A stretch of DNA of 63,692 nt, counting the filler, from Myxococcota bacterium (GTDB lineage Bacteria; Myxococcota_C; UBA6777), in the NCBI GenBank assembly GCA_023150835.1. It is 3 parts of 3 records of this genome, joined end to end, with 100 filler letters (N's around TTAATTAATTAA, not from the genome) between each part and the next. Parts side by side here need not be neighbours in the genome. Positions count along the whole stretch, not along the records: positions 25,593 to 51,070 come from JAKLKB010000100.1; 2 more parts are not named here. One strand, 5' to 3'. Of this stretch, positions 25,593-44,589 are shown in pieces. A program made the position numbers and the translations under genes. The notes beneath the pieces are model-generated. The model saw only the letters and a list, made by a program, of their open reading frames with translations. It had not been told where the DNA came from and ran no database searches. The stretch's first letter is position 1; every line of letters begins with the position of its first letter.

Positions 25593-25804
25593 GCAGACGT
25601 GCGCTCCGAAGAGAGACACACCCCCGACACACAGTAGCCCTCGTACTTGAGGTTGCTGCAATCGCAAGAGGCCGCACATTTGAGGCCGCTGGTGTTGTAG
25701 TCCGCGATCTGGATGCCGTATTTGCACTCGCCACCGCCCCCGCAAGAAACCACGCTCACCACAACACACCACCCCACTACGATCCATCCAAGCCAACGCA
25801 TCAT
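25593..25804 (-). CDS. 5' part of a fifth shared-module lipoprotein, cut by the contig end
   Basis: MMRWLGWIVVGWCVVVSVVSCGGGGECKYGIQIADYNTSGLKCAASCDCSNLKYEGYC. Confidence 0.85.
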
Positions 25805-26173
25805 AGACGAACGACTCCCTGCCTCAAACACTCCAGTTCCTCTTCGTTCCAACCAAAGCATCCTTTTCTCTCCTTTGAGCTACGGGACGTTCAAACAAAC
25901 GACTCTATCGCTTGACATGCCGCGAGTACAGGTTTTTTTTGGCACAAGCAACACCTGTTGTAATTTGGTTGCAAATACAGCGGGGCAGAAAAAACAGCGT
26001 CGCTCCTGTACCGAAAAAAATTATGCTCCATCAGCGGATAAGGATAAAGACAGGGACGTCGAACAGTTCCCACATCGCACCTTGAGAAAAGATGTTCCTG
26101 AAAACTAGAGAGAGCCACAAGAGGACTTGTGGCCTCGGAAGCTTCGTTGAGCAACAACAGAAAGGACTGGACG

Positions 26174-26238
26174 GTCAACGACCCACCCCTAAAGGGGCGG
26201 GCTTGTGAAAGCAAGTCCGGTTGACCAGACGACAACAG
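26174..26238 (+). mobile_element. Internally deleted IS200/IS605 (IscB/HEARO omega-RNA-like) mini element
   Basis: GTCAAC-GACCCACCCCTAAAGGGGCGGGCTTG-TGAAAG-CAAGTCC-GGTTGACCAGAC resembles the HEARO 5' end. It is absent from the paralogous site at 38706/38707 and is followed by ATGA. Confidence 0.75.
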
Positions 26239-26355
26239 ATGAGAAAAACATGGATGGCGTTTTTGCTGGGCTGCGGGATTTGTCTGCTGCTTCCCTCGGC
26301 AGCAAATGCGGGCTATTGCCCTGCCGATTGCGAAAGCTCTGTCCGCGCCAACTGA
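26239..26355 (+). pseudogene. Truncated paralog of the 38709-39476 secreted Cys-rich protein
   Basis: MRKTWMAFLLGCGICLLLPSAANAGYCPADCESSVRAN* versus MRKTGMAFLLGCGICLLLSSTANAAYCPADCENW; homology stops after CPADCE, and the RBS is displaced by the insertion. Confidence 0.8.
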
Positions 26356-26427
26356 AGCGAAACAGGTGGATCGGAATGCGAAAACAGGCTACAGCACAAA
26401 GCACTCTGCGCCTTGGTGGCTTCGTTG

Positions 26428-26632
26428 ACCTCACCCCTGCCCCTTCGGGGCATCCCCTCTCCACGCTTGCACTCACTACGTTCGTAGCGTAGAGAGGGGA
26501 AAAGGCCAAGGCCGATGGGTCGGGGGTTTTGGCTTTTTACAGAGAGCTACGCTCTTGCAGAAAGCTTCGATTTTCTCCCCCCTCGCCTCCGCAGCGTAGC
26601 AAGCGGGGAGAGGGGGCAGGGGGTGAGGGGTA
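26428..26632. repeat. Family C about 200-bp element with long terminal inverted repeats
   Basis: CCTCACCCCTGCCCC..CCCCTCTCC ... GGAGAGGGGGCAGGGGGTGAGG, with internal hairpins. Confidence 0.75.
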
Positions 26633-26744
26633 AGAAGAACCCGAATCCTCTGCCTATCTCGCGTTTTGTACCCCTGTAAGCCCCCCGTAAAAGCAGGAGA
26701 GAGGCTTTCCAAAAACAAAAAACAGGCGGGTAAAGCCCGATGCG

Positions 26745-29700
26745 TCAAGGAAAGCGTACAGGTGTGGTAGGTGCCGTTCGATCAAGCGAATCGCCTGCCC
26801 CAAGCTGGCCTTCGTGGTTCCTGCCCCAGCACTTGACGGTGTGGTCATCGAGGATAGCGCAGGTGTGACTTTCTCCCAAGGAGACGGCTTTTACGGTACG
26901 CCCCGCGCCAAAAGCAACGGGAAGTGTGGGTGGGACGGTTCGTGACATCGTATCACCCAACCCAAGCTGGCCGTAGTAATTGAGTCCCCAGCACTTGAGA
27001 GAGCCGTTATCAAGGAGCGCGCAGGAGCGATTAGTTGCGACGAAAACGGCTGTTGCGGTGCGCCCCGCCCCGAGATCGACGGGGGTTGCGGGAGGGGCTA
27101 TCCGTTGCGTGGTGTCACCGTAGCCGAGTTCACCGTAGGTATTGTTGCCCCAACATTTGACTGTGCCGTTGTCGAGAAGCACACAAGTATGGCTGTATTC
27201 CAAGGCAAGGGCTTTTGCGGTACGTCCCGCCCCCAAATCGAGGGGGGTTATGGGTGGAGCGCGTCGCATTGTGGTGTCACCGTAGCCGAGTTCACCAAAG
27301 GTATTGCTGCCCCAACATTTAACCGAAGCATCGTCAAGGATCGCGCAGGAATGGGATTTTCCTAACACCAAGGTTTTTGCGGTGCGCCCGCTGCCCAGAT
27401 CGACGGTGATTGTAGGCGGAGCGGTTCGGTTCACGACATCGTTGTAGCCGAGTTGACCGTAAGTGTTGCGGCCCCAACACTTGATCGAATCATTGTCAAG
27501 GATCGCACAAGCATGCGTTCCTCCCAAAGCAAGAGCTTTTGCGGTGCGACCCGTCCCGAGTTCGATGGGGTTGGCGGGAGGAGCGTTTCGATCGATGGTG
27601 TCGCTGTAGCCGAGTTGACCCACGTTATTGCGGCCCCAACACTTGAGGGTGTCGTTGTCGAGGATCGCGCAGGTGTAATAGTCGCCGACATCAAGGGCTT
27701 TTGCGGTGCGGCCTACGCCGATATCCACGACACCTGTAGGTGGGGAGGGTCGAGATACGGTATCACCGTAGCCAAGTTGACCGTACACATTCTGGCCCCA
27801 ACATCGGACTTGGCCGTTTTGGAGAGAGCAGTTGTGATACGCTCCAGACTTCAAAGCCATAAGGGGAGACGTGCAACGGAACAAACCGCATATCTGGCCG
27901 CTTGCGCAGGCGATGTTGCATCCGCCACAATGCGCGGCGGAAAAAGTATCCACACAAGTTCCGCTGCACGTGGTTTGACCGAGCGCAATCGATTCGCTTG
28001 TCACTTTACTGCGCATGGCAAAATCGCCGTAGCCGAGCTTTCCTTTGGTGTTGTCGCCAAAACAAACAGTGCGTTGGTTGTCCAAGACAGCGCAGGTGTG
28101 GGTCATGCCAACAGAAAGAGTCTTGGCGGTGCGAGCCAGACCGAAGTCCAAAGGGGCGGAGGGAGGGGCGGGTAGGTCTTTGTCTTGGCCGCTCTCGCCA
28201 TTTCCAAGTTGCCCTGCATCGTTTGCGCCCCAACAGCGGGCGGTTCCATCGTCAAGCAAAGCGCATCGATGCGAGCCAAGGCCCGAGAACAAGGCGTGGG
28301 CGGTACGACCCGCTCCAAAAGCCACAAGCTCGGCAGGGGGTTTGTTTCGGTCGGTGGTGTCGCCGTAGCCAAGCTGTCCTCGGCTGTTGTCGCCCCAACA
28401 CTTGACGGAACGATCATCCAAAAAGACGCAAACATCGGCACGACCGACGCTAAGGGATTTGACGCTGCGGCCTGCACCGACGTCGACGGGTTGAAGGTGG
28501 GGAGCGCTTCGAGGCACCTGATCGCCGAGACCGAGTTGGCCTTTGTCGTTTTTTCCCCAGCATTTGACGGTGTCGTTGTCGAGCAAGGCGCAAGTAAAAG
28601 CATCTCCCGCCCCCACCGCTTTGACACTGCGCCCGATCCCCACATCCACCGCCTTGGCATCGGGCGAAAGGCGCGAAGCCGAGTCCCCGTACCCAAGCTG
28701 GCCGTGCGCATTGGCTCCCCAACAGCGGAGGCTTGCATCATTCAACACAGCACAGGTGTGGGTCACTCCCGTCGCCGCCCCAACCACCAAACGCCCCACT
28801 CCCAAGTCCACCCCCCAAAAGATCGGCTTTTCGATATCGGTCAGGTTGCCATACCCCAACTGCCCGTAAGAATTCTTGCCCCAACAAGAAAGCCCTTGAT
28901 CAAAGGCCAACACACAGGTATGCGACTCTCCAAGCCAGATCTGCTTGGCTCGCTTTTCTGCACCCTGACCGATCACAAGTGTTTCGCTTGGAGGCAGAGC
29001 ATACAAAGCTTTATCTGCGTAGCCCAAAGGAGCGCTGTCACCATCCCCCCAACATTTGAGTTGACCACAAGCCGTAATCGCGCAAGTGTGCGAAACGCCC
29101 GCGACGACCGATAACAGCGAAGTACACCCCCCCGACACACAGATCTCGCCGACAGCACACGCCTTGCCGCACCCGCCACAATGGGCGGCGGAAGACAGCG
29201 TATCGACACAGCTTCCGTCGCAACGGGGATGCGTGGGTTTGCAATCGCACTTGCCCGAAGAGCATTGCTCGCTGAATGGAGCGCAAGGTCGGTTGCATCC
29301 ACCGCAATGCTTGGGGTCCGCAGCAACATCCACGCAGACACCTCCGCAGATCCCCGAAGCATCGCGGCATTTGCACTCGCCTCCCTCGCAACGCTCGTAA
29401 GGTGGGCAGGTTTTGCCGCATCTACCGCAATGTTTGTCGTCCGTCAAAAGATCCACGCAATCGTTGCCACAAACAGCGTAGCCTTGTTTGCAAGCACACT
29501 GCCCTCCCGAGCATTGCTTGCGCTCACCACAAGGATTCGCACATCTTCCGCAATGTAGGTTGTTGGTGGCGGTATCCACACAAACGCTGTTGCACTCGAT
29601 CTGCCCGTCGCTGCAACGACATTGACCGCCTCGACACAAGTTGCCTCCGCTGCAAGCCACATCACAGCGACCACAATGTTTGGGATTTGTTTGGGCGTCG

Positions 29701-30461
29701 ACACATTGACGGCCACAGCGTAGCTGCGCCGAAGGGCATACGATCTCCTTGCAGCTTGCGGCCTCACAGCGCCACCCATCGACGCAATCCTCATCTTTCA
29801 AGCATCCGCATTCTTCGTCGGTTTGGCCGTTGCAGTTGTTGTCTAAGCCATCGCAGAGTTCTTTTTGAGGCAGGATCTCGCCCGTACAGGCCCCCCATGT
29901 CGAATCCGCCCCACAGCTTCGGCTTCCTGCGCGGCAGATGCCGATGCCCAAGGTATGGAGCGTTCCCGTGTAGCAATTTTGGGTACGTCCCGCGACACAA
30001 AAAGGCGCACAGTCGGGATCTTCGAGATCGGTGCGACCATCACAATCGTTGTCTTGGCTGTCTGTGCAGGCTGTTGCAGTATTTTCGGGGGTGGGCGTGG
30101 GAGGGATGCAATCGCCCCAAACAAGCTCGGTCAAAGGCTCGGGTTGGGCTTCTTGTTGACCCCATTCACAAGCAGCGACTTTTTGCAACAGTTTGCATTG
30201 TTGGATCTCGCCCTTGCGTTGGGCTGCACGGCGTTGGGTCGAGACGCACGTCCCCGATACGCAGTAGCCCTCATACTTGAGGTTGCTGCAATCACAAGGC
30301 TTTTTACATTGGAGACCGCTGGTGTTGTAGTCGGCGATCTGGATACCGTTTTTGCACTCACCGCCGCCTCCGCAAGAAGCCATGCCCACCACAAAACACA
30401 AGGCCAACAAGCTTCCTCCCAACCAGCGCACCGCAAACAGCTTGACTCTCAACCAACGCAT
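26745..30461 (-). CDS. Lipoprotein: shared N-module, Cys-rich CVDxxxDxxHCGxC repeats, two RCC1-repeat blocks (paralog 1)
   Basis: Lipobox GMASC; many HTCA..CWGxNxxGQLG repeats; start ATG 30461 inferred because the longer ORF crosses a repeat element. Confidence 0.93.
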   Translation of the reverse strand: MRWLRVKLFAVRWLGGSLLALCFVVGMASCGGGGECKNGIQIADYNTSGLQCKKPCDCSNLKYEGYCVSGTCVSTQRRAAQRKGEIQQCKLLQKVAACEWGQQEAQPEPLTELVWGDCIPPTPTPENTATACTDSQDNDCDGRTDLEDPDCAPFCVAGRTQNCYTGTLHTLGIGICRAGSRSCGADSTWGACTGEILPQKELCDGLDNNCNGQTDEECGCLKDEDCVDGWRCEAASCKEIVCPSAQLRCGRQCVDAQTNPKHCGRCDVACSGGNLCRGGQCRCSDGQIECNSVCVDTATNNLHCGRCANPCGERKQCSGGQCACKQGYAVCGNDCVDLLTDDKHCGRCGKTCPPYERCEGGECKCRDASGICGGVCVDVAADPKHCGGCNRPCAPFSEQCSSGKCDCKPTHPRCDGSCVDTLSSAAHCGGCGKACAVGEICVSGGCTSLLSVVAGVSHTCAITACGQLKCWGDGDSAPLGYADKALYALPPSETLVIGQGAEKRAKQIWLGESHTCVLAFDQGLSCWGKNSYGQLGYGNLTDIEKPIFWGVDLGVGRLVVGAATGVTHTCAVLNDASLRCWGANAHGQLGYGDSASRLSPDAKAVDVGIGRSVKAVGAGDAFTCALLDNDTVKCWGKNDKGQLGLGDQVPRSAPHLQPVDVGAGRSVKSLSVGRADVCVFLDDRSVKCWGDNSRGQLGYGDTTDRNKPPAELVAFGAGRTAHALFSGLGSHRCALLDDGTARCWGANDAGQLGNGESGQDKDLPAPPSAPLDFGLARTAKTLSVGMTHTCAVLDNQRTVCFGDNTKGKLGYGDFAMRSKVTSESIALGQTTCSGTCVDTFSAAHCGGCNIACASGQICGLFRCTSPLMALKSGAYHNCSLQNGQVRCWGQNVYGQLGYGDTVSRPSPPTGVVDIGVGRTAKALDVGDYYTCAILDNDTLKCWGRNNVGQLGYSDTIDRNAPPANPIELGTGRTAKALALGGTHACAILDNDSIKCWGRNTYGQLGYNDVVNRTAPPTITVDLGSGRTAKTLVLGKSHSCAILDDASVKCWGSNTFGELGYGDTTMRRAPPITPLDLGAGRTAKALALEYSHTCVLLDNGTVKCWGNNTYGELGYGDTTQRIAPPATPVDLGAGRTATAVFVATNRSCALLDNGSLKCWGLNYYGQLGLGDTMSRTVPPTLPVAFGAGRTVKAVSLGESHTCAILDDHTVKCWGRNHEGQLGAGDSLDRTAPTTPVRFP

Positions 30462-30484
30462 ACTTTGGCTCCTTTTCGGGATAA

Positions 30485-30605
30485 TACGATATCCGAGAGC
30501 ATTGTACACGAAGGGCGGGCGCGATCTGCTATAGACGCCCTGTTCTTGGGCAGCCACGGGGGGCTGCCCCTACATCTTCCGCGTACACAATGGGCGGATT
30601 TCGAA
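30485..30605. repeat. Family A REP/MITE-like element
   Basis: TACGATATCCG ... GGGCAGCCACGGGGGGCTGCCCCTAC ... CGGATTTCGAA. Confidence 0.85.
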
Positions 30606-30632
30606 TAAATCGCGCAAGCAAAACAAACAAGA

Positions 30633-33600
30633 TCAAGGAAAAGGCAACGGATCGAAGTCGGGCGCGCTGCGGTAGATCGTGTCGCCATAACCGAGCTGTC
30701 CGTGAGGGTTGACTCCCCAACATTTGAGGGAATGGTTGTCGAGGATCACACAAGCGTAAGATTTCCCGACGTCAAGGGCTTTTGCGGTGCGACCCGCACC
30801 AAGATCAACAGGGTTGGCGGGGGGAGCGGTTCGGTTGATGATATCGCCGTAGCCGAGCTCTCCATTCGCGTTGGCTCCCCAGCATTTGACGGTATCGTTA
30901 CGGAGGATCGCGCAAGCGAAGTGCTTGCCCACGGCAAGCGTTTTCGCCGTCTGCCCCCCGCCGAGATTGATCGGGTTGATGGAGGGAGAGGTCCGGTTTG
31001 TGGTGTCGCCGTAGCCGAGTTGGCCCGAAGTGTTGCTCCCCCAACATTTGACGGTATCGTTGTCGAGGATCGCACAAGAGGATGTATCCCAGAAAGCAAG
31101 GGCCTTTGCGGTGCGACCCGTCCCGAGATCCACAGGATTGGCGGGGGGAAAGGTTCGGATTGTGGTGTCGCCGTAGCCGAGTTGGCCCGAAGTGTTGCTC
31201 CCCCAACATTTGAGGGTGTCGTTGTCAAGGATCGCGCAAGTGTAGTTTTGCCCCAAAGCAAGGGCTTTGGCGGTACGGCCCACGCCCAGATCGACGGGGG
31301 TTGGGGGGGGGGAGTTTCGCTGGATGGTATCGCCGTAGCCAAGCTGTCCGAAGAGATTCCATCCCCAACACTTGAGAGTATCGTTGTCGAGGATCGCGCA
31401 GGAGTGAGAGGCTCCCAAGGCAAGGGCTTTTGCGGTGCGCCCAGCGCCGAGATCGACGGGGGTCGAGGGGGGAGATTTTCGCGAAATGGCGTCAGCCAAG
31501 CCAAGCTGCCCGTCAGAGTTGCCCCCCCAACATTTGAGCGTATCGTTGTCGAGGATCGCGCAGGAGTGAGAGGCTCCCAAGGCAAGGGCTTTCGCGGTGC
31601 GGCCCGCGCCAAGATCTACAAAGGCGGTCGGCGGGGCCGTTCGGCTTGTGATGTCGCCGTAGCCAAGCACACCGTCACCGTTCCACCCCCAACACCGAAG
31701 TTGGCCGCTTTGTAAAGAACAAGAGTGTTCGTTCCCCAAAGCGACTGCCGTCACTCCAAGAACACAACGCCCGACGTTGCACATCTGGTTGGCTGCACAA
31801 GCAGCGCTACACCCGCCACAATGATCGGGCGAAGCCAAGATATCAACACAAGCGCCGCCACAGATCGCCTGCCCCAAAGCGATCGGATCGCTGGGTTTGA
31901 TGCGCGAGTTCGTGTCGCCATATCCGAGCTTTCCACCCCCACCATCCCCCCAACAGACGGTGCGTTGGTTGTCCAAGACAGCGCAAGTGTGGTTCATACC
32001 GACAGAAAGAGCTTTTGCGGTGCGACCCATACCGAAGTCCAAAGCAACGGAAGGAGGGGCGGACTGGTCTTTGCCTTGGCCGCTTTCACCGTTGCCAAGC
32101 TGCCCTGTATCATTTGCCCCCCAACAGCGGGCAGTTCCATCATCAAGCAAAGCACAGCGGTGTGAGCCAAAGCCCGAGAACAAGGAATGGACGGTGCGGC
32201 CTGCTCCAAAAGTCACAAGCCCAGCAGGGGGCTTGTTTCGATCGGTGGTATCGCCGTAGCCAAGCTGTCCTCGGCGGTTGTCACCCCAGCACTTGACGGA
32301 GCGATCATCCAACAAGACGCAGACATCGGCACGACCGACGCTAAGGGATTTGGCGCTGCGCCCTACACCGACGTCGACGGGTTGAAGGTTGGGAGCGTTT
32401 CGAGAGACCTGATCGCCAAGACCGAGTTGGCCTTTGTCGTTGTTTCCCCAGCATTTGACGGTGTCGTTATCAAGCAAGGCACAAGTGAAAGCATCTCCCG
32501 CACCCACAGATTTGACACTGCGCCCGATCCCCACATCCACCGCCTTGGTATCCGGCGAAAGTCGCGAAATTGCATCGCCATAGCCAAGCTGGCCTTTGTC
32601 GTTTCCGCCCCAGCAACGCAGGCTTGCGTCATCCAAGATCGCGCAAGTGTGGTTGACACCAACGACCACTTGAGTTGCATAACGACCCACCCCCATCCCC
32701 ACACCCGACAGGCTCGGAGCCGCAAGAGCGATCGTGTTTCCGTATCCTAACTGCCCGACTTGGTTTTCTCCCCAGCAATGCACACGAGAATCCACCAACG
32801 CACAGGAATGTTTTTCCCCAAGCACCACTTGTCGGACGAGTTCCACACCAGATGCGCCAAAAACGAGCGACCGCCCGCTTGGAGAAAAGCGGATCCGACC
32901 ATCCCCATAACCAAGCGCAACACGATTTCCATACCCCCAACATTTGAGTCGCCCGCAAACCGTGACAGCACATGTATGGGAAACACCCGCAACGATCGAC
33001 AACAGCGGATTGCAAACGCCCGCTTTGCAAGCTTCGCCCACAGCACAAGCCTTGCCACATCCGCCACAATGGGCCGTAGAAGACTGCGTATCGACACAGC
33101 TTCCGTCGCAGCGGGGATGCGTGGACTTGCAATCGCACTTGCCCGAAGAGCATTGCTCGCTGAACGGAGCGCAAGGTCGGTTGCATCCGCCACAATGCTT
33201 GGGGTCCGCAGCGATATCCACGCAGACGCCCTCGCAGATCCCCGAAGCATCGCGACATTTGCACACGCCTCCCTCGCAACGCTCGTAATGTGGGCAAGCT
33301 TTGCCGCAGGTTCCGCAATGTTTGTCGTCCGTCAAAAGATCCACGCAATCGTTGCCGCAAACGGAGTCGCCTTGTTTGCACAAGCATTGCCCTCCCGAAC
33401 ATTGCTTGCGCTCACCACAAGGATTCGTGCATTTTCCGCAGTGCAGGTTGTTGGTGGCGGTATCCACACAAGCGCTGTCGCACTCGCTCTGCCCATCGCT
33501 GCAACGGCATTGACCACCTCGACACAAGTTCCCTCCGCTACAAGCCACACCACAGCGACCGCAATGTTTGGGATCGGTTTGCGGATCGACGCATTGACGA

Positions 33601-34325
33601 CCACAGCGCAGTTGTGCCGAAGGGCATACGATCTCCTTACAGCTTGCGCCGGCCTCACAGCGCCAACCCTCGACGCAATCCTCGTCTTTCGAGCATCCGC
33701 ATCCTTCGTCCGTTTGGCCGTTGCAGTTGTTGTCCAAACCGTCGCAAAGCTCTTTTTGAGGCAGGATCTCGCCCGTACAGGGTCCCCACATCGAATCAGC
33801 CCCACAGCTTCGACTCCCTGCGCGACATACGCCGATGCCCGACGTGCTGGGCGTTCCTGTGTAGCAATCTTCGGAGCGCCCAGCGGAACAGAAGGGCGCA
33901 CAGTCGGGATCTTCGAGGTCGGTGCGACCATCACAATCGTTGTCTTGGCTGTCTGTACAGGCTTTTACCGTATTTTCGGGAGTGGGCGTGGGAGGGATGC
34001 AATCGCCCCAAACAAGCTCGGTCAGAGGCTCGGGTTGGGCTTCTTGTTGACCCCATTCGCAAGCGCCGACTTTTTGCAACAGTTTGCATCGTCGGATCTC
34101 GCCCTTGCGTTGGGCAGGAAGGCGTTGGGTCGAGACGCACGTCCCCGACACGCAGTAGCCCTCATACTTGAGGTTGCTGCAATCACAAGGCTTTTTACAT
34201 TGGAGACCGCTGGTGTTGTAATCGGCAAGCTGGATGCCGTTTTTGCACTCGCCTCCGCCTCCACAAGAAGCCATGCCCACCACAAAACACAAGGCCAACA
34301 AGCCCCCTCCCAACCAACGCATCAT
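30633..34325 (-). CDS. RCC1-repeat Cys-rich lipoprotein (paralog 2)
   Basis: Same architecture; MMRWLGGGLLALCFVVGMASC. Confidence 0.93.
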   Translation of the reverse strand: MMRWLGGGLLALCFVVGMASCGGGGECKNGIQLADYNTSGLQCKKPCDCSNLKYEGYCVSGTCVSTQRLPAQRKGEIRRCKLLQKVGACEWGQQEAQPEPLTELVWGDCIPPTPTPENTVKACTDSQDNDCDGRTDLEDPDCAPFCSAGRSEDCYTGTPSTSGIGVCRAGSRSCGADSMWGPCTGEILPQKELCDGLDNNCNGQTDEGCGCSKDEDCVEGWRCEAGASCKEIVCPSAQLRCGRQCVDPQTDPKHCGRCGVACSGGNLCRGGQCRCSDGQSECDSACVDTATNNLHCGKCTNPCGERKQCSGGQCLCKQGDSVCGNDCVDLLTDDKHCGTCGKACPHYERCEGGVCKCRDASGICEGVCVDIAADPKHCGGCNRPCAPFSEQCSSGKCDCKSTHPRCDGSCVDTQSSTAHCGGCGKACAVGEACKAGVCNPLLSIVAGVSHTCAVTVCGRLKCWGYGNRVALGYGDGRIRFSPSGRSLVFGASGVELVRQVVLGEKHSCALVDSRVHCWGENQVGQLGYGNTIALAAPSLSGVGMGVGRYATQVVVGVNHTCAILDDASLRCWGGNDKGQLGYGDAISRLSPDTKAVDVGIGRSVKSVGAGDAFTCALLDNDTVKCWGNNDKGQLGLGDQVSRNAPNLQPVDVGVGRSAKSLSVGRADVCVLLDDRSVKCWGDNRRGQLGYGDTTDRNKPPAGLVTFGAGRTVHSLFSGFGSHRCALLDDGTARCWGANDTGQLGNGESGQGKDQSAPPSVALDFGMGRTAKALSVGMNHTCAVLDNQRTVCWGDGGGGKLGYGDTNSRIKPSDPIALGQAICGGACVDILASPDHCGGCSAACAANQMCNVGRCVLGVTAVALGNEHSCSLQSGQLRCWGWNGDGVLGYGDITSRTAPPTAFVDLGAGRTAKALALGASHSCAILDNDTLKCWGGNSDGQLGLADAISRKSPPSTPVDLGAGRTAKALALGASHSCAILDNDTLKCWGWNLFGQLGYGDTIQRNSPPPTPVDLGVGRTAKALALGQNYTCAILDNDTLKCWGSNTSGQLGYGDTTIRTFPPANPVDLGTGRTAKALAFWDTSSCAILDNDTVKCWGSNTSGQLGYGDTTNRTSPSINPINLGGGQTAKTLAVGKHFACAILRNDTVKCWGANANGELGYGDIINRTAPPANPVDLGAGRTAKALDVGKSYACVILDNHSLKCWGVNPHGQLGYGDTIYRSAPDFDPLPFP

Positions 34326-34457
34326 GCGCGATTCGACAACGAGAACACGGGTTTTTTTTGTCAACGGCGTCACTCCTAATGATGCTTTGGATGGCTCTCT
34401 CAAGGAAAGCGCACAAGACGGTGCTTTGGAGGTCTCTCTCTGCGTTGGAGGACTCTC

Positions 34458-37400
34458 TCAAGGAAAGCGCACAGGATGGTGTTCGGGAGCAGATCGCGGC
34501 AGGACATCGCCCATCCCAAGCTGCCCCTCGGCATTGCGGCCCCAACAGCGCATCGAATGATCTTGCAAGATCACGCAAGCATGGTGGCTTCCAAGCGAGA
34601 GGCGTTCAGGCCGAACACCGACCCCCAAGTCGATCGAGGTCGCAGGGGGTGCGTTGCGGGTGGTCAAGTCGCCATAGCCAAGTTGTCCGTAAGCGTTGTT
34701 GCCCCAACACTTGAGAGCGTCGTTATCGAGAATCGCGCAACCGAAGCTGTGTCCCACCGCAAGGGCTTTTGCGGTGCGCCCGACACCGAGATCAACGGGG
34801 GTTGATGGGGGAGCGTTTCGGCTCGTGGTGTCGCCGTAGCCGAGCTGGCCTTCTATATTTGCTCCCCAACACTTGACGGTGTCGTTGTCGAGGAGCGCAC
34901 AAGTGTATTCGCTGCCCAAAGCAAGGGCTTTTGCAGTGCGACCTGCCCCGAGATCGACGGCAGTCGTAGGCGGAGAGGTTCGTTGGGTCGTATCGCCGTA
35001 GCCGAGTTGGCCAACAGCGTTGCGGCCCCAACATTTGACGGAGGAATCGTCAAGGATCGCACAAGAGTGTGAACCTCCCAAGGCAAGGGCTTTGGCGGTA
35101 CGGCCCACGCCAAGATCGACGGTGGTTGGGGGGGGAGAAGTTCGAGTTGTGGTGTCGCCATAGCCAAGCTGCCCAAAAGTGTTCCATCCCCAGCACTTGA
35201 GCGTGTCGTTGTCGAGGAGCGCGCAGGTGTGGGAGGCTCCCAAGGCAAGGGCTTTTACAGTACGCCCGACACCGAGATCGACGGGGGTTGAGGGGGGAGT
35301 GTTTCGGTTTGTGGTGTCAGCCAAACCAAGCTGCCCGTAAGAGTTGCCCCCCCAACATTTGAGCGTGTCGTTGTCGAGGAGCGCGCAGGTGTGGGAGGCT
35401 CCCAAGGCAAGGGCTTTTGCGGTGCGGCCCGCGCCCAGATCGATGGGCGTGGTGGCAGCAAAAAAGCGCGAAGTGTGATCGCCATAACCGAGTTGACCGA
35501 CGTTGTTGTATCCCCAACACTTGATCTGCCCTGCTTGAAGAGAACAGGTATGACCCGCTCCAGAGGCGAAAGCGTCCATTTGAGGGATGCAGCGGCTGCC
35601 GTTGCAGCCTTGGTTTGCGGCACAAACGACGTTGCATCCGCCACAATGCGCGATAGAAAAAGTGTCCACACAAGCTCCGCCGCAGACTGTTTGGCCCAGC
35701 ACGATCGACTCCTCCGTCACTTTGTTGCGCGGGATCTCATCACCATATCCGAGCTTTCCACCGCGCCCATCCCCCCAACAAACGGTGCGTTGGTTGTCCA
35801 AGACAGCGCAAGTGTGGTTCATGCCGACAGAAAGAGTCTTTGCGGTGCGACCCATACCGAAGTCCAAAGCAGCGGAAGCAGGGGCGAGTTGGTCTTTGTC
35901 TTGGCCGCTCTCGCCGTTTCCAAGCTGCCCTGTATCGTTTGCGCCCCAACAGCGGGTAGTTCCATCGTCAAGCAAAGCGCAGCGGTGCGAGCCAAGGCCC
36001 GAAAACAAGAAGTGGGCAGTACGACCCGCCCCAAAAGCTACAAGCTCGGCAGGAGGCTTGTTTCGGTCGGTGGTGTCGCCGTAGCCAAGCTGTCCTCGGC
36101 TGTTGTCGCCCCAACACTTGACGGAACGATCGTCCAACAAGACGCAGACATCGGCGCGACCGACGCTGAGGGACTTGACGCTGCGTCCTGCACCGACATC
36201 AAGAGGCCGAAGTTCTGGCGCGTTTCGAGGCATCTGATCACCGAGACCTAGCTGGCCCTTGTCGTTGTTTCCCCAGCATTTGACGGTGTCGTTGTCGAGC
36301 AAGACACAAGTGAAAGCGTCTCCCACCCCCACAGATTTGACACCGAGTCCGATCCCCATATCGATGGCGATCTTTGGGGGCGCGAAGCGCCAAGTCGCAT
36401 CGCCGTACCCGAGCTGGCCGTTGTCATTGGCCCCCCAACAACGGAGGCTTGCGTCATCCAACACCGCGCAAGTATGTTTGGAACCGACAGCCACTTGGAC
36501 AGCGAAACGACTGGCTCCAAAGTCCACCGCGATCCCGCTCGCGGCGAGAAGCGGTTTGACATCCCCATAACCCAATTGCCCGTCGTGGTTGGCCCCCCAA
36601 CAGTACAAACGCCTGTCCACCAACAAAGCACAAGCATGCGTTCGACCGATCGCGATCTGTCGAACTTGTCGTTGTTTGCCTTGGCCGATGGCGCTCACCT
36701 CCATCAAAGCAAAACGGCGGATGCCTTGCTCTCCGTAACCAAGCGAGCTTTCAGAACCATCCCCCCAACATTTCAGCCGCCCACAGGCCGTGATCGCGCA
36801 AGTGGACGAAACACCCGCAACAACCGACACCAGCGAAGCGCAAACGCCCTCTTCGCAAGCCTCGCCAACAACACACGCCTTGCCGCACCCACCACAATGA
36901 TCAACAGACGATCTTGTGTCCGTACATTTTCCATCACAACGGAGATGGGCGGGCTTGCAATCGCACTTGCCCGAAGAACATCGCTCGCTGAACAGATCAC
37001 AAGTCTTATTGCATCCGCCACAATGCTTGGGATCCGCAGCGATATCCACACAAACGCCCTCGCAGCTCCCCGAAGCATCGCGGCATTTGCACACGCCCCC
37101 TTCGCAACGCTCGTAATGTGGGCAAGCTTTGCCGCAGGTTCCGCAATGTTTGTCGTCCGTCAAAAGCTCCACACAATCGTTGCCACAAACAGCATAGCCT
37201 TGTTTACAAGCACATTGATATCCCGAGCATTGCTTGCGCTCACCACAAGGATTCGTGCATCTTCCGCAGTGTAGGTTGTTGGTGGCGGTATCCACACAAA
37301 CGCTGTTGCACTCGATCTGCCCATCGCTGCAACGGCATTGACCACCTCGGCACAGGTTCCCTCCGCTACAAGCCACACCACAGCGACCGCAATGTTTGGG

Positions 37401-38207
37401 ATCGGTTTGCGGATCGACGCATTGACGGCCACAGCGTAGCTGCGCCGAAGGGCATACGATCTCCTTGCAGCTTGCGGCCTCACAGCGCCACCCATCGACG
37501 CAATCCTCATCTTTCAAGCATCCGCATTCTTCGTCGGTTTGGCCGTTGCAGTTGTTGTCCAAACCATCGCAGAGCTCTTTTTGAGGCAAGATCTCACCTG
37601 TACAGGCCCCCCATGTCGAATCTGCCCCACAGTTTCGGCTGCCTGCGCGGCACACGCCGACGCCCAAGGTATCGAGCGTCCCCGTGTAGCAGGTTTGATT
37701 CAGTCCCGCGACACAAAAAGGCGCACAGTCGGGATCTTCGAGATCGGTGCGGCCATCGCAATCGTTGTCTTGGCTGTCTGTGCAGGCTGTTGCAGTATTT
37801 TCGGGAGTGGGCGTGGGAGGAATGCAATCGCCCCAAACCAGTTCGGTCAGAGGCTCGGGTTGGGCTTCTTGTTGACCCCATTCGCAAGCGCCGACTTTTT
37901 GCAACAACTTGCAACGTTGGATATCGCCCTTGCGCCGGGCTAGAACACGAGGGTTGGAGACGCACGTCCCCAACACACAGTAGCCCTCGAACTTGAGGTT
38001 GCTGCAATCACAACCAACTGTGCATTTGAGTCCGCTGGTATTGTAGTCGACGAGTTGGATGCCGTTTTTGCACTCGCCACCGCCCCCACAAGAAGCCGTG
38101 CCCACCGCAAAACACACAGCCAACAAGCTCCCCCCCAACCAGCGCATTGTAGACAACAAAGCCGCGACGGCGCCCACCCAACCCACGTTCCATTCCAGCC
38201 AGCGCAT
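34458..38207 (-). CDS. RCC1-repeat Cys-rich lipoprotein (paralog 3)
   Basis: Same architecture; lipobox GTASC; start ATG 38207 or 38147. Confidence 0.93.
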   Translation of the reverse strand: MRWLEWNVGWVGAVAALLSTMRWLGGSLLAVCFAVGTASCGGGGECKNGIQLVDYNTSGLKCTVGCDCSNLKFEGYCVLGTCVSNPRVLARRKGDIQRCKLLQKVGACEWGQQEAQPEPLTELVWGDCIPPTPTPENTATACTDSQDNDCDGRTDLEDPDCAPFCVAGLNQTCYTGTLDTLGVGVCRAGSRNCGADSTWGACTGEILPQKELCDGLDNNCNGQTDEECGCLKDEDCVDGWRCEAASCKEIVCPSAQLRCGRQCVDPQTDPKHCGRCGVACSGGNLCRGGQCRCSDGQIECNSVCVDTATNNLHCGRCTNPCGERKQCSGYQCACKQGYAVCGNDCVELLTDDKHCGTCGKACPHYERCEGGVCKCRDASGSCEGVCVDIAADPKHCGGCNKTCDLFSERCSSGKCDCKPAHLRCDGKCTDTRSSVDHCGGCGKACVVGEACEEGVCASLVSVVAGVSSTCAITACGRLKCWGDGSESSLGYGEQGIRRFALMEVSAIGQGKQRQVRQIAIGRTHACALLVDRRLYCWGANHDGQLGYGDVKPLLAASGIAVDFGASRFAVQVAVGSKHTCAVLDDASLRCWGANDNGQLGYGDATWRFAPPKIAIDMGIGLGVKSVGVGDAFTCVLLDNDTVKCWGNNDKGQLGLGDQMPRNAPELRPLDVGAGRSVKSLSVGRADVCVLLDDRSVKCWGDNSRGQLGYGDTTDRNKPPAELVAFGAGRTAHFLFSGLGSHRCALLDDGTTRCWGANDTGQLGNGESGQDKDQLAPASAALDFGMGRTAKTLSVGMNHTCAVLDNQRTVCWGDGRGGKLGYGDEIPRNKVTEESIVLGQTVCGGACVDTFSIAHCGGCNVVCAANQGCNGSRCIPQMDAFASGAGHTCSLQAGQIKCWGYNNVGQLGYGDHTSRFFAATTPIDLGAGRTAKALALGASHTCALLDNDTLKCWGGNSYGQLGLADTTNRNTPPSTPVDLGVGRTVKALALGASHTCALLDNDTLKCWGWNTFGQLGYGDTTTRTSPPPTTVDLGVGRTAKALALGGSHSCAILDDSSVKCWGRNAVGQLGYGDTTQRTSPPTTAVDLGAGRTAKALALGSEYTCALLDNDTVKCWGANIEGQLGYGDTTSRNAPPSTPVDLGVGRTAKALAVGHSFGCAILDNDALKCWGNNAYGQLGYGDLTTRNAPPATSIDLGVGVRPERLSLGSHHACVILQDHSMRCWGRNAEGQLGMGDVLPRSAPEHHPVRFP

Positions 38208-38391
38208 CCTTTTCGCTCCTTTGTGCCACAGCCTATCCGAAGGCCCGCTTCGATGAAAATGACCGAAGGCCCGCTTTTTTGCTTGCCCTAACTCAGGATT
38301 TCGTATCGCCTTAAAGATCTGTTGTATCATTCGAGGCAAAAACCTTCAAACCCTTTTTTCGATAGGATTTGGCGCAGTTGGGATCGTTTCG

Positions 38392-38527: not shown

Positions 38528-38708
38528 TGCGTAAGCTCTATGCAAGCAAAAAATGAGGGGGCAACCAGAGAATAAAAAAAAGAAAGGGGCGTCAAACAGT
38601 TCCCACACCGCGCCGAGAGAGAAGATGTTCCCGAACACCCGAGAGCGCCACAACCCCCTTTGTGGCCTCAGCAACTTCGTTGAGAAACAACGGAAAGGAC
38701 TGGACGAG

Positions 38709-39476
38709 ATGAGGAAAACAGGAATGGCGTTTCTGCTGGGCTGCGGGATTTGTCTGCTGCTGTCGTCGACAGCGAATGCAGCCTACTGCCCTGCCGATTG
38801 CGAAAACTGGTTTGATGGCTGCAACGATTGTGTCTGCCGAAACGGCCAAACAGCGGGATGCACACGGCGTTTTTGCCGCACCAAAAGCCAACCCTATTGC
38901 AAAAAGAAGCGCTGCCCAAGTTGCGCCACCCTGCGCTGCGCCAGCGGATACCGTTGCACCAACCAGTTCAACGGCTGTGGCCAATGCGTCGCCCTTCCCC
39001 CCACTCCCCGCCCCAACACCTCTTGCGCCGCCCCCTACTACTTCGCCACCGAACGCGATTGTCGCGCAAGCGGCCACGCAAAATGCTTCCCCAGCATCAA
39101 CCGCAAAGGCTGCTTTGCCCCTGTCTACTCGGCAAGTTTCAGCGCTGCTTCGTCCTCAGGCGTCAGCTTGCGCGTCGCCCCGGGCGCTTCCCGCATCAAG
39201 ATCGCCGACGCTCGCGGGCGAATATGCCTCGCGGGGAGCCTCGTTTGCGGAGATGTGTCTGGTGTTAACCAAAAAGAATGCGACGACATCTCCGAAGAGT
39301 GCATTTGTCCGAGACGCTGCTCGGGGAAAAATTTTGGAGCGTTGGTAGACAATCGGTGCAACGCTGTGCGCGCAGGCGCACTTCTTCCCGTCAGCGGCTC
39401 GATCTCGATCCACTTTGTCCAAGACTGTAAAATCAACAACAACCGAGGCGAATTCACTGTGTTGTATCACAACTGA
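38709..39476 (+). CDS. Secreted Cys-rich protein with a pacifastin-like CxxWFDGCNxCxC..CTxxxC module
   Basis: GAAAGGA RBS; signal peptide ending ANA; more than 20 Cys. Confidence 0.8.
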   Translation: MRKTGMAFLLGCGICLLLSSTANAAYCPADCENWFDGCNDCVCRNGQTAGCTRRFCRTKSQPYCKKKRCPSCATLRCASGYRCTNQFNGCGQCVALPPTPRPNTSCAAPYYFATERDCRASGHAKCFPSINRKGCFAPVYSASFSAASSSGVSLRVAPGASRIKIADARGRICLAGSLVCGDVSGVNQKECDDISEECICPRRCSGKNFGALVDNRCNAVRAGALLPVSGSISIHFVQDCKINNNRGEFTVLYHN

Positions 39477-40110: not shown

Positions 40111-40521
40111 GAGGATGATCGATCTTTCTTTTGTCGCCCTCCTCATTCCCCTCGGCCAACGGGGGGAAGTTGGAGCAGGCAAAGACGTTCTCTTGTGCAA
40201 ACAGCGTGCAGCATGGAAAACCAAAACCTCGCTGCCTCCGACTTTCTCTCCCTCCCCTGTTCACGGTCTTTGGCAGGGGTGGGGGCCAACCATAGCTTAA
40301 CCTAACGCCTTATGGGGCAAAGCCCCACAAACACAAGAGACAGGGGGCCTGAGATGGAAACCCAGAAACACCAGAAGAGAGTGCAAAGCTCTTGACACAA
40401 CGCAGGAATTGGCGTTGTGGTAAAGCGAGCAAGCAGGCCAAACAACGGGGGCTACCGCACCGCAGCACACGTTGTTTGGACACCCCATCGGCAGGCTTTT
40501 TTGGACGTATTGAGGTTTGAC

Positions 40522-43500
40522 ATGCAACGGTACCCCACACCGCCAACGCCCCCTTTGCGCGCTTTTTTGATAGGCATCGGTTTGTGTTTTTTGATCGGAT
40601 TTTTTGCGTTCGGCTTATCCGCGTGTGCCGATCCCAACGCTCCCAAGACATGCAGCGACAACGCCGAGTGCAGCGGCGAGCGCCGCTATTGCGTGGGGGG
40701 GGTGTGCCGCTTTTGTATCCAAGACCAAGATTGTGGGCAAGGCAAACGCTGCCAATCCAACGTCTGTATCGAAGCAACGACCGAGGCGGCAGGCGAATCC
40801 GCCCAAGAAGACGCAAGCGCCGAGGCTGATCCCACTGATTCTTCGGCAGAACAGACCCGCCCCGAAGAAGAAGCCGCCAACACCGAAGACAGCGGCCCGA
40901 CAGAAAGCATCGCCGAACAACCACCCTCCGACGAACCCAAAGGCCCCTCTTGCAAACCCGATCCAGATGATCTCACGGCTTGTTGCGCGCCCACACAAAG
41001 CAAGCTGTTGTGGCAGCCTCATCTGCTTTTTGGCGCACGCAATCCCCAAGTGCGCCTCGCCGTCCACCCCGCAGGAACCCATCTTGTGACGGTCGCAGAT
41101 GACGAACCCACGCTGCGGATCTGGCGCACCAACAACGGTGTCTTGGACAACGTGATCAACAACTTGAATGCCAGCCCGGGTTCGTGGTACGTCGCTTATG
41201 CGCCTGACGGAAAGACCCTTGCGACGGCGGATCGCGACTACAACGTCCGTCTGTTTGATACCACGACAGGCGCGCTCAAACACACCCTCACAGGCCACAC
41301 CAGTTTTGTGTACGGCGTGGCCTTTTCTCCCAATGGAAAGCTCCTTGCTTCCGCAGGTTCGTTTGATCGAACGATACGCATCTGGGATCTCGCCACCAAC
41401 AAACAACTCTTGAGCCTCGCTCATGCCAGTACAACCCGCGTGGTGCGCTTTTCTCCCGATAGCACGATGCTTGCGGCAGCGTCGGATGATCGGTTGATCA
41501 AGCTGTGGAATGTCGCGGACGGCAAACTGATCCGCGATATCACAGGACACACCAGCACGATCTGGGGCATTGACTTTTCTCCTGACGGAAAGCTCCTTGC
41601 ATCGGGTTCTTCGGATCTATCCGCACGCCTCTGGAACGTTGCTGACGGCAAGCTATCCAAAACGCTGACGGACTCGACGGGCCCCGTCTACGATCTCGCC
41701 TTCTCGAAAGACGGCAAGATGCTTGCGGTCTCTGGCGGAAGTCAGCGCGTGGTGCATCTTTACGACACCGCAACGTGGGCACGCACCAAGCAATTCACAG
41801 GATACGCTTCGGGCAACATCTTTTCGTTGGGCTTTTCGCCGAATGGAACGGCCCTTTACACCAGCGCAGACGATCGCACGATGCGTCATTACACCGTCGC
41901 CGACGCGATGACTTCTCGCGTGATCTACACCAACTCGGAGCGCCACGTTGAAGTCGCCACCAGTCCCAAAGGAAAGTGGATGGCCGCAGCCAGCGTCGTG
42001 CGCCAAGAAGTGCGGCTGTGGCAAGTCGGCCAGTACGATCAGCGCAAGTCCCTGAACGAACACCCTGCGGGCGTCGCAGCGTTGGCCTTTTCCCCCGATG
42101 AGGCGCTACTCGCAACAGGTGGAGAAGACGGCGCGATCCGCTTGTTTGGCACAGCCGACGGCAAAAAAACCCGAGAACTCGTCGGCCACAAGCTCCCCAC
42201 GCGTGCGATTGCTTTTTCACCAGACGGAAAAGCCCTTGTATCGGCATCTTGGGATCGAGATGTCCGCCTTTGGAATGTTGCGGACGGCAAGCTGATCCGC
42301 AACATCAGCGGTCAGCACCCTGCCGTGATCTCGGCAGTGAAGTTTTCACCTGACGGAAAGCTCCTTGCAACGGCCTGTGCCGATCACAATGTTCGCCTGT
42401 TCAATGCAGTAGATGGAACTCTTTTGCAAACGCTCACAGGCCACACACGTTGGGTGTTCGACCTCGCGTTTTCGCCCGACGGAACGCAGATGGCGTCGGT
42501 CTCCGAAGACGTCAGCATCCGCTTGTGGAAGATCCCAAGCGGCGAGTCGGCGCAAACATGGACGGGTCGGCATCTGAGCGTGATCCGCCGCGTGGATTTT
42601 TCCCCTGATGGGCAGCTACTGGTCACCAGCTCTTACGATCAATATGTCAAGCTGTTGCGCGCCAGCGATGGTGAGATCTTGCAGATGTATCGGGGTTTTA
42701 ATGGCTTCGTAAGCAGCGCGCACTTTAGTCCTGACGGACGCCGTATCGTGACGGGCGCTTGGGATGAAACCATCCGCATCTGGCAAGTTGAAACCAAAGG
42801 CCGCCTCTCTCGCACCCTTGATGGCCAGACCCAGATCGTCAGCCAAGTCATCCTCCATCCTCTCGGTCACACCGCCGTATCCACCACCGAAGTGGGTTTC
42901 GCTCTGATCTGGGATACCGCCACATGGCAAGTCCGCCACAAACTCGAAGGGCATGAAGGCGGTGTTTTTTCTTTGGCCTACTCTCCCGACGGAAAGACCC
43001 TTGCGACGGGCGACAACAAAGGCAATGTCTTTCTGTGGGATGCCGCCACAGCCAAAAAACAAAAAGAACTGAAAGGCCACACCAGCCGCGTCGCAGCCCT
43101 CGCCTTCTCACTCGATGGAAAGACCCTTGCATCGGGATCATGGGACACACATATCCGCCTCTGGTCGGTGACTGATGGCAAAGAAAAAAGCGTCGTGCGC
43201 GGACACGAAGGCTATGTGCTTTCGTTGGCGTTTGCGCCCAACGGAACGCACCTTGTATCGGGTTCTTATGACCGCTCGATCCGTGTGTGGGATCTCAACG
43301 ACAACAACAAAGAGATCCAAAAGCTGATCTCTCAAGGCGGTGGCATCACACAGATCGGCTTTTCCCCCAATGGGGCCTATCTTGCAAGCGCCGCCTACGA
43401 CTCCACAGTACGGATCTGGAATGGGGCCAATTACGCAGGTATCCGTACGCTTACAGGCCATGTACGCGCAGTCGCCAGTCTCGCTTTTTCTCCCGACAGC

Positions 43501-44589
43501 GAGATCCTCTACTCCGGAGCTTGGGACAAAACGATCCGCGCTTGGCGTGCCGCCGATGGACACCTCTTGCAAAACTTTGAAGGGCACACCCAAGGCGTCA
43601 TCAGCCTTGCGATCGCCCCTGACCACGCATGGATGCTCTCGGCAGGCGAAGACGCCAAGATCCATGTCTGGCAAGTCGGCCAAGATAGACTTATGGAAAC
43701 CCTTTATACCAGCCCGTTCGGAGTGCTCGGTCTTTCGGTGAGCCCCGATGATGCGTGGGTTGCAACAGGTGGCTATGATCGTGTACTCAAACTCTGGAAC
43801 AGCCAAACCACCGCAGCATACCGAACGTACAGCAGCCATGCTGCCGAGCTTTTGGATGTCACCGTGACAAGCGACGCGGCAACCGTCGCCTCAGGCTCCG
43901 AAGACAAGCGCGTGCGCTTGTGGAGGCGTTCCGACGGATCGCTGTTGCGACAGATCGGAACAGAACACGACGGCGGCGTCACCAGCGTGCGCTTTACCAA
44001 AGATGACAAGACCCTGCTGACCGCCTCACGCGACGGCAAGTTGCGCTTGTGGAACGTCGCCGATGGCAAGCTCACCAAGACCCTCGAAGGCCACACCGAC
44101 GAAGTCTTGCGTGCGATCTTTTCTCCAGATGATAGCCTGATCGCCTCTTCCGACCGCAAGGGCGAGATCTATGTCTGGAAAGTCGCCGATGGAAGCGTTG
44201 CTTACAAGATCACCGCCCACACCAAAGCTACACGCGATCTGACTTTTTCACGCGATGGCAACTTCCTCTTCTCGATCTCAGACGATCAAACGCTGCGGAT
44301 GTGGTGGGTGACTGACGGAAGGCCGCTGCTTACACGCAACCTATCGATCATACCAAACCGCCTGTGCATGGGCCCCAAAGATGCGTGGCTGGCTCTTTCC
44401 AACCAACAAGACGGCGTCGTCCAGTTGTGGAATCCTGAGACCATGCAGATCATCACGCGGCTCTCCACACAATCGCTTGCGCTGACGTCCCTTGCTTGTG
44501 GAAACAAGGCAACTATGCTGTTTGCAGCGAACCACAACGGCCTTGCTTTTGGCTGGACTTGCCCGATCCAAGCCCCGCCCAAGCCCTAA
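40522..44589 (+). CDS. Giant WD40-repeat lipoprotein (Cys-rich N-terminus, acidic linker, more than 20 WD40 repeats)
   Basis: Lipobox GLSAC; repeated GH...FSPDG..LASGS.D..IRLW; GAGG RBS before ATG 40522. Confidence 0.93.
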   Translation: MQRYPTPPTPPLRAFLIGIGLCFLIGFFAFGLSACADPNAPKTCSDNAECSGERRYCVGGVCRFCIQDQDCGQGKRCQSNVCIEATTEAAGESAQEDASAEADPTDSSAEQTRPEEEAANTEDSGPTESIAEQPPSDEPKGPSCKPDPDDLTACCAPTQSKLLWQPHLLFGARNPQVRLAVHPAGTHLVTVADDEPTLRIWRTNNGVLDNVINNLNASPGSWYVAYAPDGKTLATADRDYNVRLFDTTTGALKHTLTGHTSFVYGVAFSPNGKLLASAGSFDRTIRIWDLATNKQLLSLAHASTTRVVRFSPDSTMLAAASDDRLIKLWNVADGKLIRDITGHTSTIWGIDFSPDGKLLASGSSDLSARLWNVADGKLSKTLTDSTGPVYDLAFSKDGKMLAVSGGSQRVVHLYDTATWARTKQFTGYASGNIFSLGFSPNGTALYTSADDRTMRHYTVADAMTSRVIYTNSERHVEVATSPKGKWMAAASVVRQEVRLWQVGQYDQRKSLNEHPAGVAALAFSPDEALLATGGEDGAIRLFGTADGKKTRELVGHKLPTRAIAFSPDGKALVSASWDRDVRLWNVADGKLIRNISGQHPAVISAVKFSPDGKLLATACADHNVRLFNAVDGTLLQTLTGHTRWVFDLAFSPDGTQMASVSEDVSIRLWKIPSGESAQTWTGRHLSVIRRVDFSPDGQLLVTSSYDQYVKLLRASDGEILQMYRGFNGFVSSAHFSPDGRRIVTGAWDETIRIWQVETKGRLSRTLDGQTQIVSQVILHPLGHTAVSTTEVGFALIWDTATWQVRHKLEGHEGGVFSLAYSPDGKTLATGDNKGNVFLWDAATAKKQKELKGHTSRVAALAFSLDGKTLASGSWDTHIRLWSVTDGKEKSVVRGHEGYVLSLAFAPNGTHLVSGSYDRSIRVWDLNDNNKEIQKLISQGGGITQIGFSPNGAYLASAAYDSTVRIWNGANYAGIRTLTGHVRAVASLAFSPDSEILYSGAWDKTIRAWRAADGHLLQNFEGHTQGVISLAIAPDHAWMLSAGEDAKIHVWQVGQDRLMETLYTSPFGVLGLSVSPDDAWVATGGYDRVLKLWNSQTTAAYRTYSSHAAELLDVTVTSDAATVASGSEDKRVRLWRRSDGSLLRQIGTEHDGGVTSVRFTKDDKTLLTASRDGKLRLWNVADGKLTKTLEGHTDEVLRAIFSPDDSLIASSDRKGEIYVWKVADGSVAYKITAHTKATRDLTFSRDGNFLFSISDDQTLRMWWVTDGRPLLTRNLSIIPNRLCMGPKDAWLALSNQQDGVVQLWNPETMQIITRLSTQSLALTSLACGNKATMLFAANHNGLAFGWTCPIQAPPKP

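Follow-up and report, generated by a model that had tools for sequence, protein, structure and literature searches.

The window analysed here (the whole stretch of 63,692 nucleotides, filler included, from a Myxococcota bacterium, assembly GCA_023150835.1) contains two copies of a module formed by a leader and the first ~33 codons of a gene, and in one of them a short insert stands between the Shine-Dalgarno-like motif and the start codon. This arrangement raises the question of what the insert is and how it came to lie at the very start of a reading frame. The insert (26174..26238, + strand) is a 65-bp stub composed of the first 65 nt, on the omega-RNA or right-end side, of an ISC-type IscB transposon. 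We consider it quite likely that it is a dead, one-ended relic of such an IscB/omega-RNA element (IS200/IS605 superfamily), which would have inserted here and subsequently lost its nt 66-~1546.

The duplicated module occupies 26045..26338 (+) and is common to 38580-38808, as seen by alignment. The likeness first noted between 26085-26338 and 38618-38808 is real and spans about 26045 to 26338. A MAFFT alignment of 26040-26400 with 38575-38900 showed a 63-column gap at 26174-26236, placed between ...GGACTGGACG and AGATGAG. The start codon behind the stub (26239-26241) opens a 38-aa ORF (26239..26355, +), a truncated paralog of gene B with a signal-peptide-like start followed by 14 residues, whose homology to gene B stops at about 26338 and which has no Pfam family. 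Gene B itself (38709-39476, +) encodes a 255-aa Cys-rich protein of secreted type with a sub-threshold match to Pacifastin_I (23.2 bits, cut-off 27.9). The paralogous site without the insert (38618..38808, +) reads GGACG-AG-ATGAGG, GGACG ending at 38706 and ATGA beginning at 38709. Because of the two extra bases before ATGA, it is a related site and not the exact empty site that the original prediction had placed in the same window. The prediction had also matched the would-be guide of the insert to this paralog. The 14 bases beside the stub are indeed identical in gene B, where the AG stands between them and ATGA, but this identity is only a consequence of the paralogy, and the stub is unable to form an omega-RNA.

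Both leaders contain a hairpin (26110-26135 and 38645-38670) in which the stem GCCACAA...TTGTGGC is kept and the loop is wholly different; this Cys-rich secreted-protein family may have in it a structured element of its 5'-UTR. The 38-aa ORF has two Cys in its last 14 residues, is unchanged in the empty allele described below and is found on RNA-library contigs; instead of being a pseudogene, it might encode a genuine small secreted peptide. The intergenic segment downstream of it (26363-26700) is built of repeats also present on numerous contigs of the related Myxococcota MAG G001, and in sludge DNA runs its depth is 5-10 times that of the flanks. Three tandem paralogous genes (26745-38339, - strand; 1,256-1,293 aa) are each endowed with RCC1-like beta-propeller repeats, Stig1-like Cys-rich modules and a MopE-type metal-binding motif, and further on a gene at 40417-44589 (+) encodes a 1,390-aa WD40 protein.

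The exact borders of the insert were provided by sludge contigs that lack these bases. In the RNA libraries of one study (X15 and X16), a 309-nt contig each fits 26109-26172 and 26238-26458 and joins 26172 to 26238, skipping 65 nt of the type GT..AG and leaving the empty form GGACG|ATGAG. Of the two sizes originally considered for the insert, 65 bp including the terminal AG is the one shown by this empty form, and the alternative of 63 bp is discarded; the absence of a target duplication that had been noted is likewise borne out by the comparison of the filled and empty forms. Since X15 and X16 come from one study, they count as one observation. Two DNA contigs from two other studies (X5, 25773-26425; X6, 25773-26446) contain the insert and show no difference from the window. 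The only sightings of the empty form are the RNA-library contigs of that one study, and the DNA runs X5 and X6 show the filled form alone. The joined contig carries a base change at 26359 and begins with 24 nt that deviate from the window, which points to another strain or copy and argues against RNA processing. The X15 and X16 contigs cover 26109 onwards and none of 25700-26108, a distribution that, in contigs of one study, does not reveal transcript ends or levels. The locus is polymorphic among sludge populations, filled in some and empty in others, the empty form being taken from RNA-library contigs. Contigs of the full-length type were present in the same sludge runs; they have the stub's first 66-67 nt in common and loose ends behind 26239, and the one from X15 shows 0 differences from the window over 26173-26239.

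Folding of the insert reproduced the structure proposed for it, a GUCAAC/GUUGAC stem around two hairpins, with a minimum free energy of -26 kcal/mol (z = -3.6, with 1 of 200 shuffles as good). The closing stem (GTCAAC 26174-26179, GTTGAC 26220-26225) delimits a HEARO 5' domain at 26174..26225 (+), defined by this MFE fold and by the cmscan alignment to model positions 1-56. The insert motif has a single occurrence in the window, against a chance expectation of 0.00-0.01. When compared with the Rfam HEARO model (RF02033, 211 positions, gathering score 83 bits), 26174-26251 gave a partial match of 36.5 bits (E 7.2e-6) that covers positions 1-56 and the last 14 and skips 143 positions. The stub therefore falls below the score of a full HEARO RNA (36.5 vs 83 bits), about 155 of the 211 scaffold positions being missing from it, and the scan of the whole window at gathering thresholds returned 0 Rfam matches. 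The 5' domain itself, with its GUCAAC...GUUGACCA stem enclosing two hairpins, is present, and the assignment to the IscB/HEARO family made in the original prediction is upheld by this partial match together with the identity to full-length elements given below.

Hairpin 1 (26182..26201, +) is formed by a C-rich arm, a TAAA loop and a G-rich arm. It is probably the hairpin of the right end to which the Y1 transposase (TnpA) binds, judging by eye from its resemblance to the 3' sub-terminal hairpin of the complete element, which consists of a C-run, a CTAAAG loop and a G-run. Of the two termini, the stub retains the 5' GT terminus with its hairpin and has neither the 3' terminus nor the hairpin belonging to it, and the terminal AG is internal sequence of the parent element. 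The 5' flank (26155..26173, +), as read from the sequence, would correspond to the guide of a complete omega-RNA if the scheme of Meers et al. applies here. It includes a Shine-Dalgarno-like GAAAGGA (26160-26166), which is set 65 nt apart from the ATG through the stub.

The parent of the stub could be recognized in other assemblies. The stub is identical in 64 of 65 positions to nt 1-65 of a complete copy of 1,546 nt on a metagenome contig (L118), with 97.1% identity over 69 nt. Five complete copies (1,547-1,549 nt) were found in a second related genome, G002, together with one copy that has a 471-nt internal deletion and keeps both ends (L074). The element is organized as an omega-RNA of about 285 nt, the iscB ORF (RRXRR at 205 bits, plus HNH) and a 3' end of about 28 nt with a hairpin. 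In G001, a fairly close relative (87% identical to the window across the neighbouring RCC1 gene), a pattern scan with one genome per species located the stub-type 5' domain on 11 contigs, for the most part at their ends, where a repeat is expected to lie. All 10 of the G001 copies that extend at least 77 nt run on into a complete omega-RNA, with scores of up to 94.9 bits on HEARO (cut-off 83). The parent element is multi-copy in this MAG. The orthologous locus was not found in G001, where synteny stops at the neighbouring RCC1 gene. No iscB is present in the window (best tblastn E 0.62), nor is any other piece of the element. A second metagenome scan gave 28 loci, namely 16 family-A copies, 10 other HEARO types and 2 short remnants (L116, L099), neither of which is directly followed by ATGA; 15 of the family-A copies pass nt 66 as the full-length form and the remaining one (L106) is cut off at nt 31. 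No Y1 transposase gene with matching ends was found: PF01797 has 0 matches in G001, 3 in G002 and 4 in G005, and the DNA around the Y1 genes of G002 and G005 shows no similarity to the element ends.

Within the family the loop of hairpin 2 varies and its stem is kept (GTGAAAG vs GTTTCGG; L017, L019, L020, L023 and L102-L104 vs L001 and others), and the two hairpin-2 sub-lineages, with changes at 26207-26209, coexist in one MAG and in sludge runs. A 42-nt degenerate pattern of the 5' domain also heads IscB elements in an Asgard archaeon MAG (L005) and in a Thiopseudomonas MAG (L011), and these archaeal and gammaproteobacterial matches indicate that this omega-RNA end is conserved across domains.

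The ATGA behind the stub (26239..26242, +) is the target of the transposon, presumably its TAM, and at the same time the start codon. This is seen in the empty form and in the relatives of the stub, whose 3' ends abut ATGA in 21 of 21 cases (16 matches in G001 and the 5 complete G002 copies). The ATGA junction proposed originally is thus confirmed, by the inspection of 3' flanks that had been suggested for this purpose, and it agrees with PMC4810608 and Meers et al. Insertion at N|ATGA with 5'-GT and CG-3' termini is described for one group of ISC transposons (PMC4810608), and the stub is located in the same way, directly 5' of ATGA and without target duplication. The TAM of IscB has been given as TTCAT 5' of the left end, i.e. 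ATGAA in the iscB sense, and the omega-RNA as bounded by the right end of the transposon (bioRxiv 10.1101/2023.03.14.532601), while sub-terminal hairpins at both ends form the ISC/IS605 architecture (PMC4810608). Among the 21 ends, the ATG behind the element opens an ORF of at least 85 aa in 19 and of 6-7 aa in the other 2, and GGAG/GAGG-type motifs are common a few bases upstream in the 5' flanks of full-length copies. As a rule, the family is placed between a ribosome-binding site and a start codon. In every complete copy (L075-L079 in G002, L039-L054 in G001) the iscB stop lies only about 27 nt before the host ATG. Translation of the host gene may be coupled to that of iscB, and such coupling would account for the tolerance of insertions at start codons. 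Weinberg et al., in their 2009 description of HEARO, are said to have noted ATGA/GTGA junctions; a literature search linking HEARO with ATGA returned no relevant paper.

The idea that the insert inactivates genes at their start finds no support here, as 19 of the 21 related ends precede long open ORFs and the 38-aa fragment is already present in both the filled and the empty alleles of this locus. Its description as an internally deleted, non-autonomous derivative could not be maintained either. The whole element beyond nt 65 is missing, and with it the left-end hairpin, which a mobile derivative of the PATE type requires. The 65-bp unit was not encountered a second time in the window, nor among the BLAST matches of five related genomes (of 41), which were full-length or of 78, 36-39 and about 46 nt, nor in a metagenome scan for forms of 51-81 nt with ATGA at their end (0 in a collection that does not include the window's locus).

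Shortened copies of other kinds accompany the family. A 78-nt 5' stub in G001 (L029/L085) directly abuts an ATGA with which a reading frame of 152 aa or more begins. Further 5' remnants measure about 36-39 nt (L080), about 46 nt (L081) and about 32 nt (L116). Stubs of the 3' end of about 70-125 nt (L046, L047, L053) each end at ATGA plus an ORF, and internal deletions with both ends kept are represented by C14 in G001 and by L074. A direction bias among the stubs was considered and ruled out, since 3' stubs (L046, L047, L053) exist alongside 5' stubs. With relics of both ends and of many lengths, the simplest reading is the ordinary decay of a multi-copy transposon. An ~800-nt derivative in G001 (L021/L045, G001:C14:6390-7189) has a HEARO RNA, stands before an ATGA start codon and encodes a 164-aa fused iscB remnant in which the N-terminal PLMP part is joined to a C-terminal part.

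From these data a sequence of events can be proposed for the window's locus. A full-length element of ~1.55 kb, mobilized by a Y1 (TnpA) transposase acting in trans, would have inserted at GGACG|ATGAG without target duplication, between the ribosome-binding site and the ATG of the small truncated gene. The segment from nt 66 to ~1546, and with it iscB, the left-end hairpin and the greater part of the omega-RNA scaffold, would then have been lost in one event whose right border is the element/ATGA boundary. No full-length copy was seen at the stub's own site. With 0-1 differences from active-looking copies and a polymorphic locus, the event is recent. The stub can no longer guide IscB and, with the second hairpin missing, should not transpose. 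As to the cause of the loss, we tentatively favour an aberrant strand transfer by the transposase, in which a true left-end cut was combined with an internal site, over a random deletion, because a right border exact to the base is unlikely for a random event. Selection hardly explains this precision, given that the fragment of 38 aa is found in both alleles. Microhomology-mediated deletion was considered and is unsupported, the junction sharing only 1 base. In the parent, the sequence after the internal breakpoint is AGGA(A), one mismatch from ATGA(A), a near-match whose chance probability we put at roughly 5-20%. A pseudo-TAM at the breakpoint was rejected, as it would rest on one case, which is not significant, and the 78-nt and 36-nt stubs show no similar motif.

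It is conceivable, though we hold it to be doubtful, that right-end stubs abutting ATGA exactly (the 65-bp and 78-nt forms) are a specific by-product of the IscB/TnpA life cycle and not of random decay. They might arise by a half excision, in which TnpA would cut the left end correctly and transfer the strand to an internal site, or by an aborted IscB-triggered copy repair. If this were true, they would constitute a class of footprints between ribosome-binding sites and start codons that could alter translation initiation.

The two exact borders and the canonical ATGA target would also be expected if the 65-bp unit were a miniature mobile element (PATE/MITE-like), excised at a TAM-like internal site and pasted at N|ATGA. 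The AGGAA that follows the stub's sequence in the parent could be read as such a site, and PATEs of IscB elements that carry no gene have been described (Meers et al.). However, the stub has just one of the two sub-terminal hairpins and is a single copy in the window, and the unit is missing both from the BLAST matches inspected in 5 of the 41 related genomes and from the metagenome scan for forms of 51-81 nt mentioned above, so that this origin is unlikely. The empty form, for its part, could reflect a processed transcript from which the 65 nt were removed at the RNA level, as an intron would be. The joined form does appear only in RNA-library contigs, X5 and X6 being filled, but the change at 26359 and the unfitting 24-nt end of the joined contig indicate another strain or copy, and a 65-nt HEARO 5' domain is not known to self-splice, which also counts against this explanation; we regard it as highly improbable.

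Retention for a function, either as a 5'-UTR element altering translation or as a decoy or short guide for an IscB made elsewhere, would fit the stable fold (z = -3.6), the 65-nt separation of the Shine-Dalgarno-like motif from the ATG and the coverage of the locus by RNA-library contigs, a coverage that is no proof of transcription. Against it, the locus is polymorphic and not conserved, the ORF behind the stub is a 38-aa fragment without a family, about three quarters of the HEARO scaffold (the 155 positions given above) are absent, and the many lengths of relics from both ends in the relative are those expected of decay, all of which makes such a role very unlikely. Finally, a Rfam score under the gathering score might suggest a chance hairpin or a REP-type repeat unrelated to IscB. 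This reading is refuted with near certainty by the near-identity of the stub (64/65) to the beginning of genuine IscB elements and by its exact, family-type borders. The reading retained is a one-ended relic of an ISC-type transposon.

The stub thus offers a base-precise example of IscB transposon decay at a site that is polymorphic in natural sludge populations, in a Myxococcota lineage with a multi-copy ISC family lodged at start codons. Knowledge of OMEGA systems is unchanged by it, as the target, the architecture and the existence of gene-less derivatives were already published. Some wider interest lies in one-ended stubs with exact borders as a possible record of a side reaction, unrecognised so far, either of the transposase or of repair triggered by the nuclease.

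Among known systems, the N|ATGA ISC transposons (ISC1-1_MA, ISC2-1_MS; Kapitonov, Makarova and Koonin 2016, PMC4810608) are close to the parent family. Both have a 5'-GT(CA) terminus, ...CG-3' in most copies of the parent family, sub-terminal hairpins and a single iscB, and both insert directly upstream of ATGA with no target duplication. The parent family comes from uncultured Myxococcota of activated sludge, hosts that do not figure in the excerpted text of PMC4810608. In contrast to these transposons, the window retains the first 65 nt only, the 3' terminus, iscB and the second hairpin being gone, and the stub consequently lacks the combination of 5'-GT and CG-3' ends with a hairpin at both that characterizes an ISC terminus pair. 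ISGst5 of Geobacillus stearothermophilus (Meers et al.) is comparable in that its omega-RNA begins at the right end and has its guide supplied by the flank, in its TAM (TTCAT, ATGAA in the iscB sense) and in the existence of gene-less derivatives, a comparison that on our side is drawn at the level of sequence. The PATEs described by Meers et al. keep both ends, whereas the stub has the right-end side alone and does not belong with them. The stub matches HEARO RF02033 over the first ~56 model positions, consensus stem and both hairpins included, and differs from it by the 143 model positions that are absent and by a score below the gathering threshold, which its full-length relatives pass. The stub also resembles the one-ended remnants of insertion sequences ('solo' ends), being a terminal fragment, polymorphic and without coding capacity. 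Unlike in the usual remnants of this kind, however, the border of its deletion coincides to the base with the boundary between transposon and target, which hints at a transposase-linked origin.
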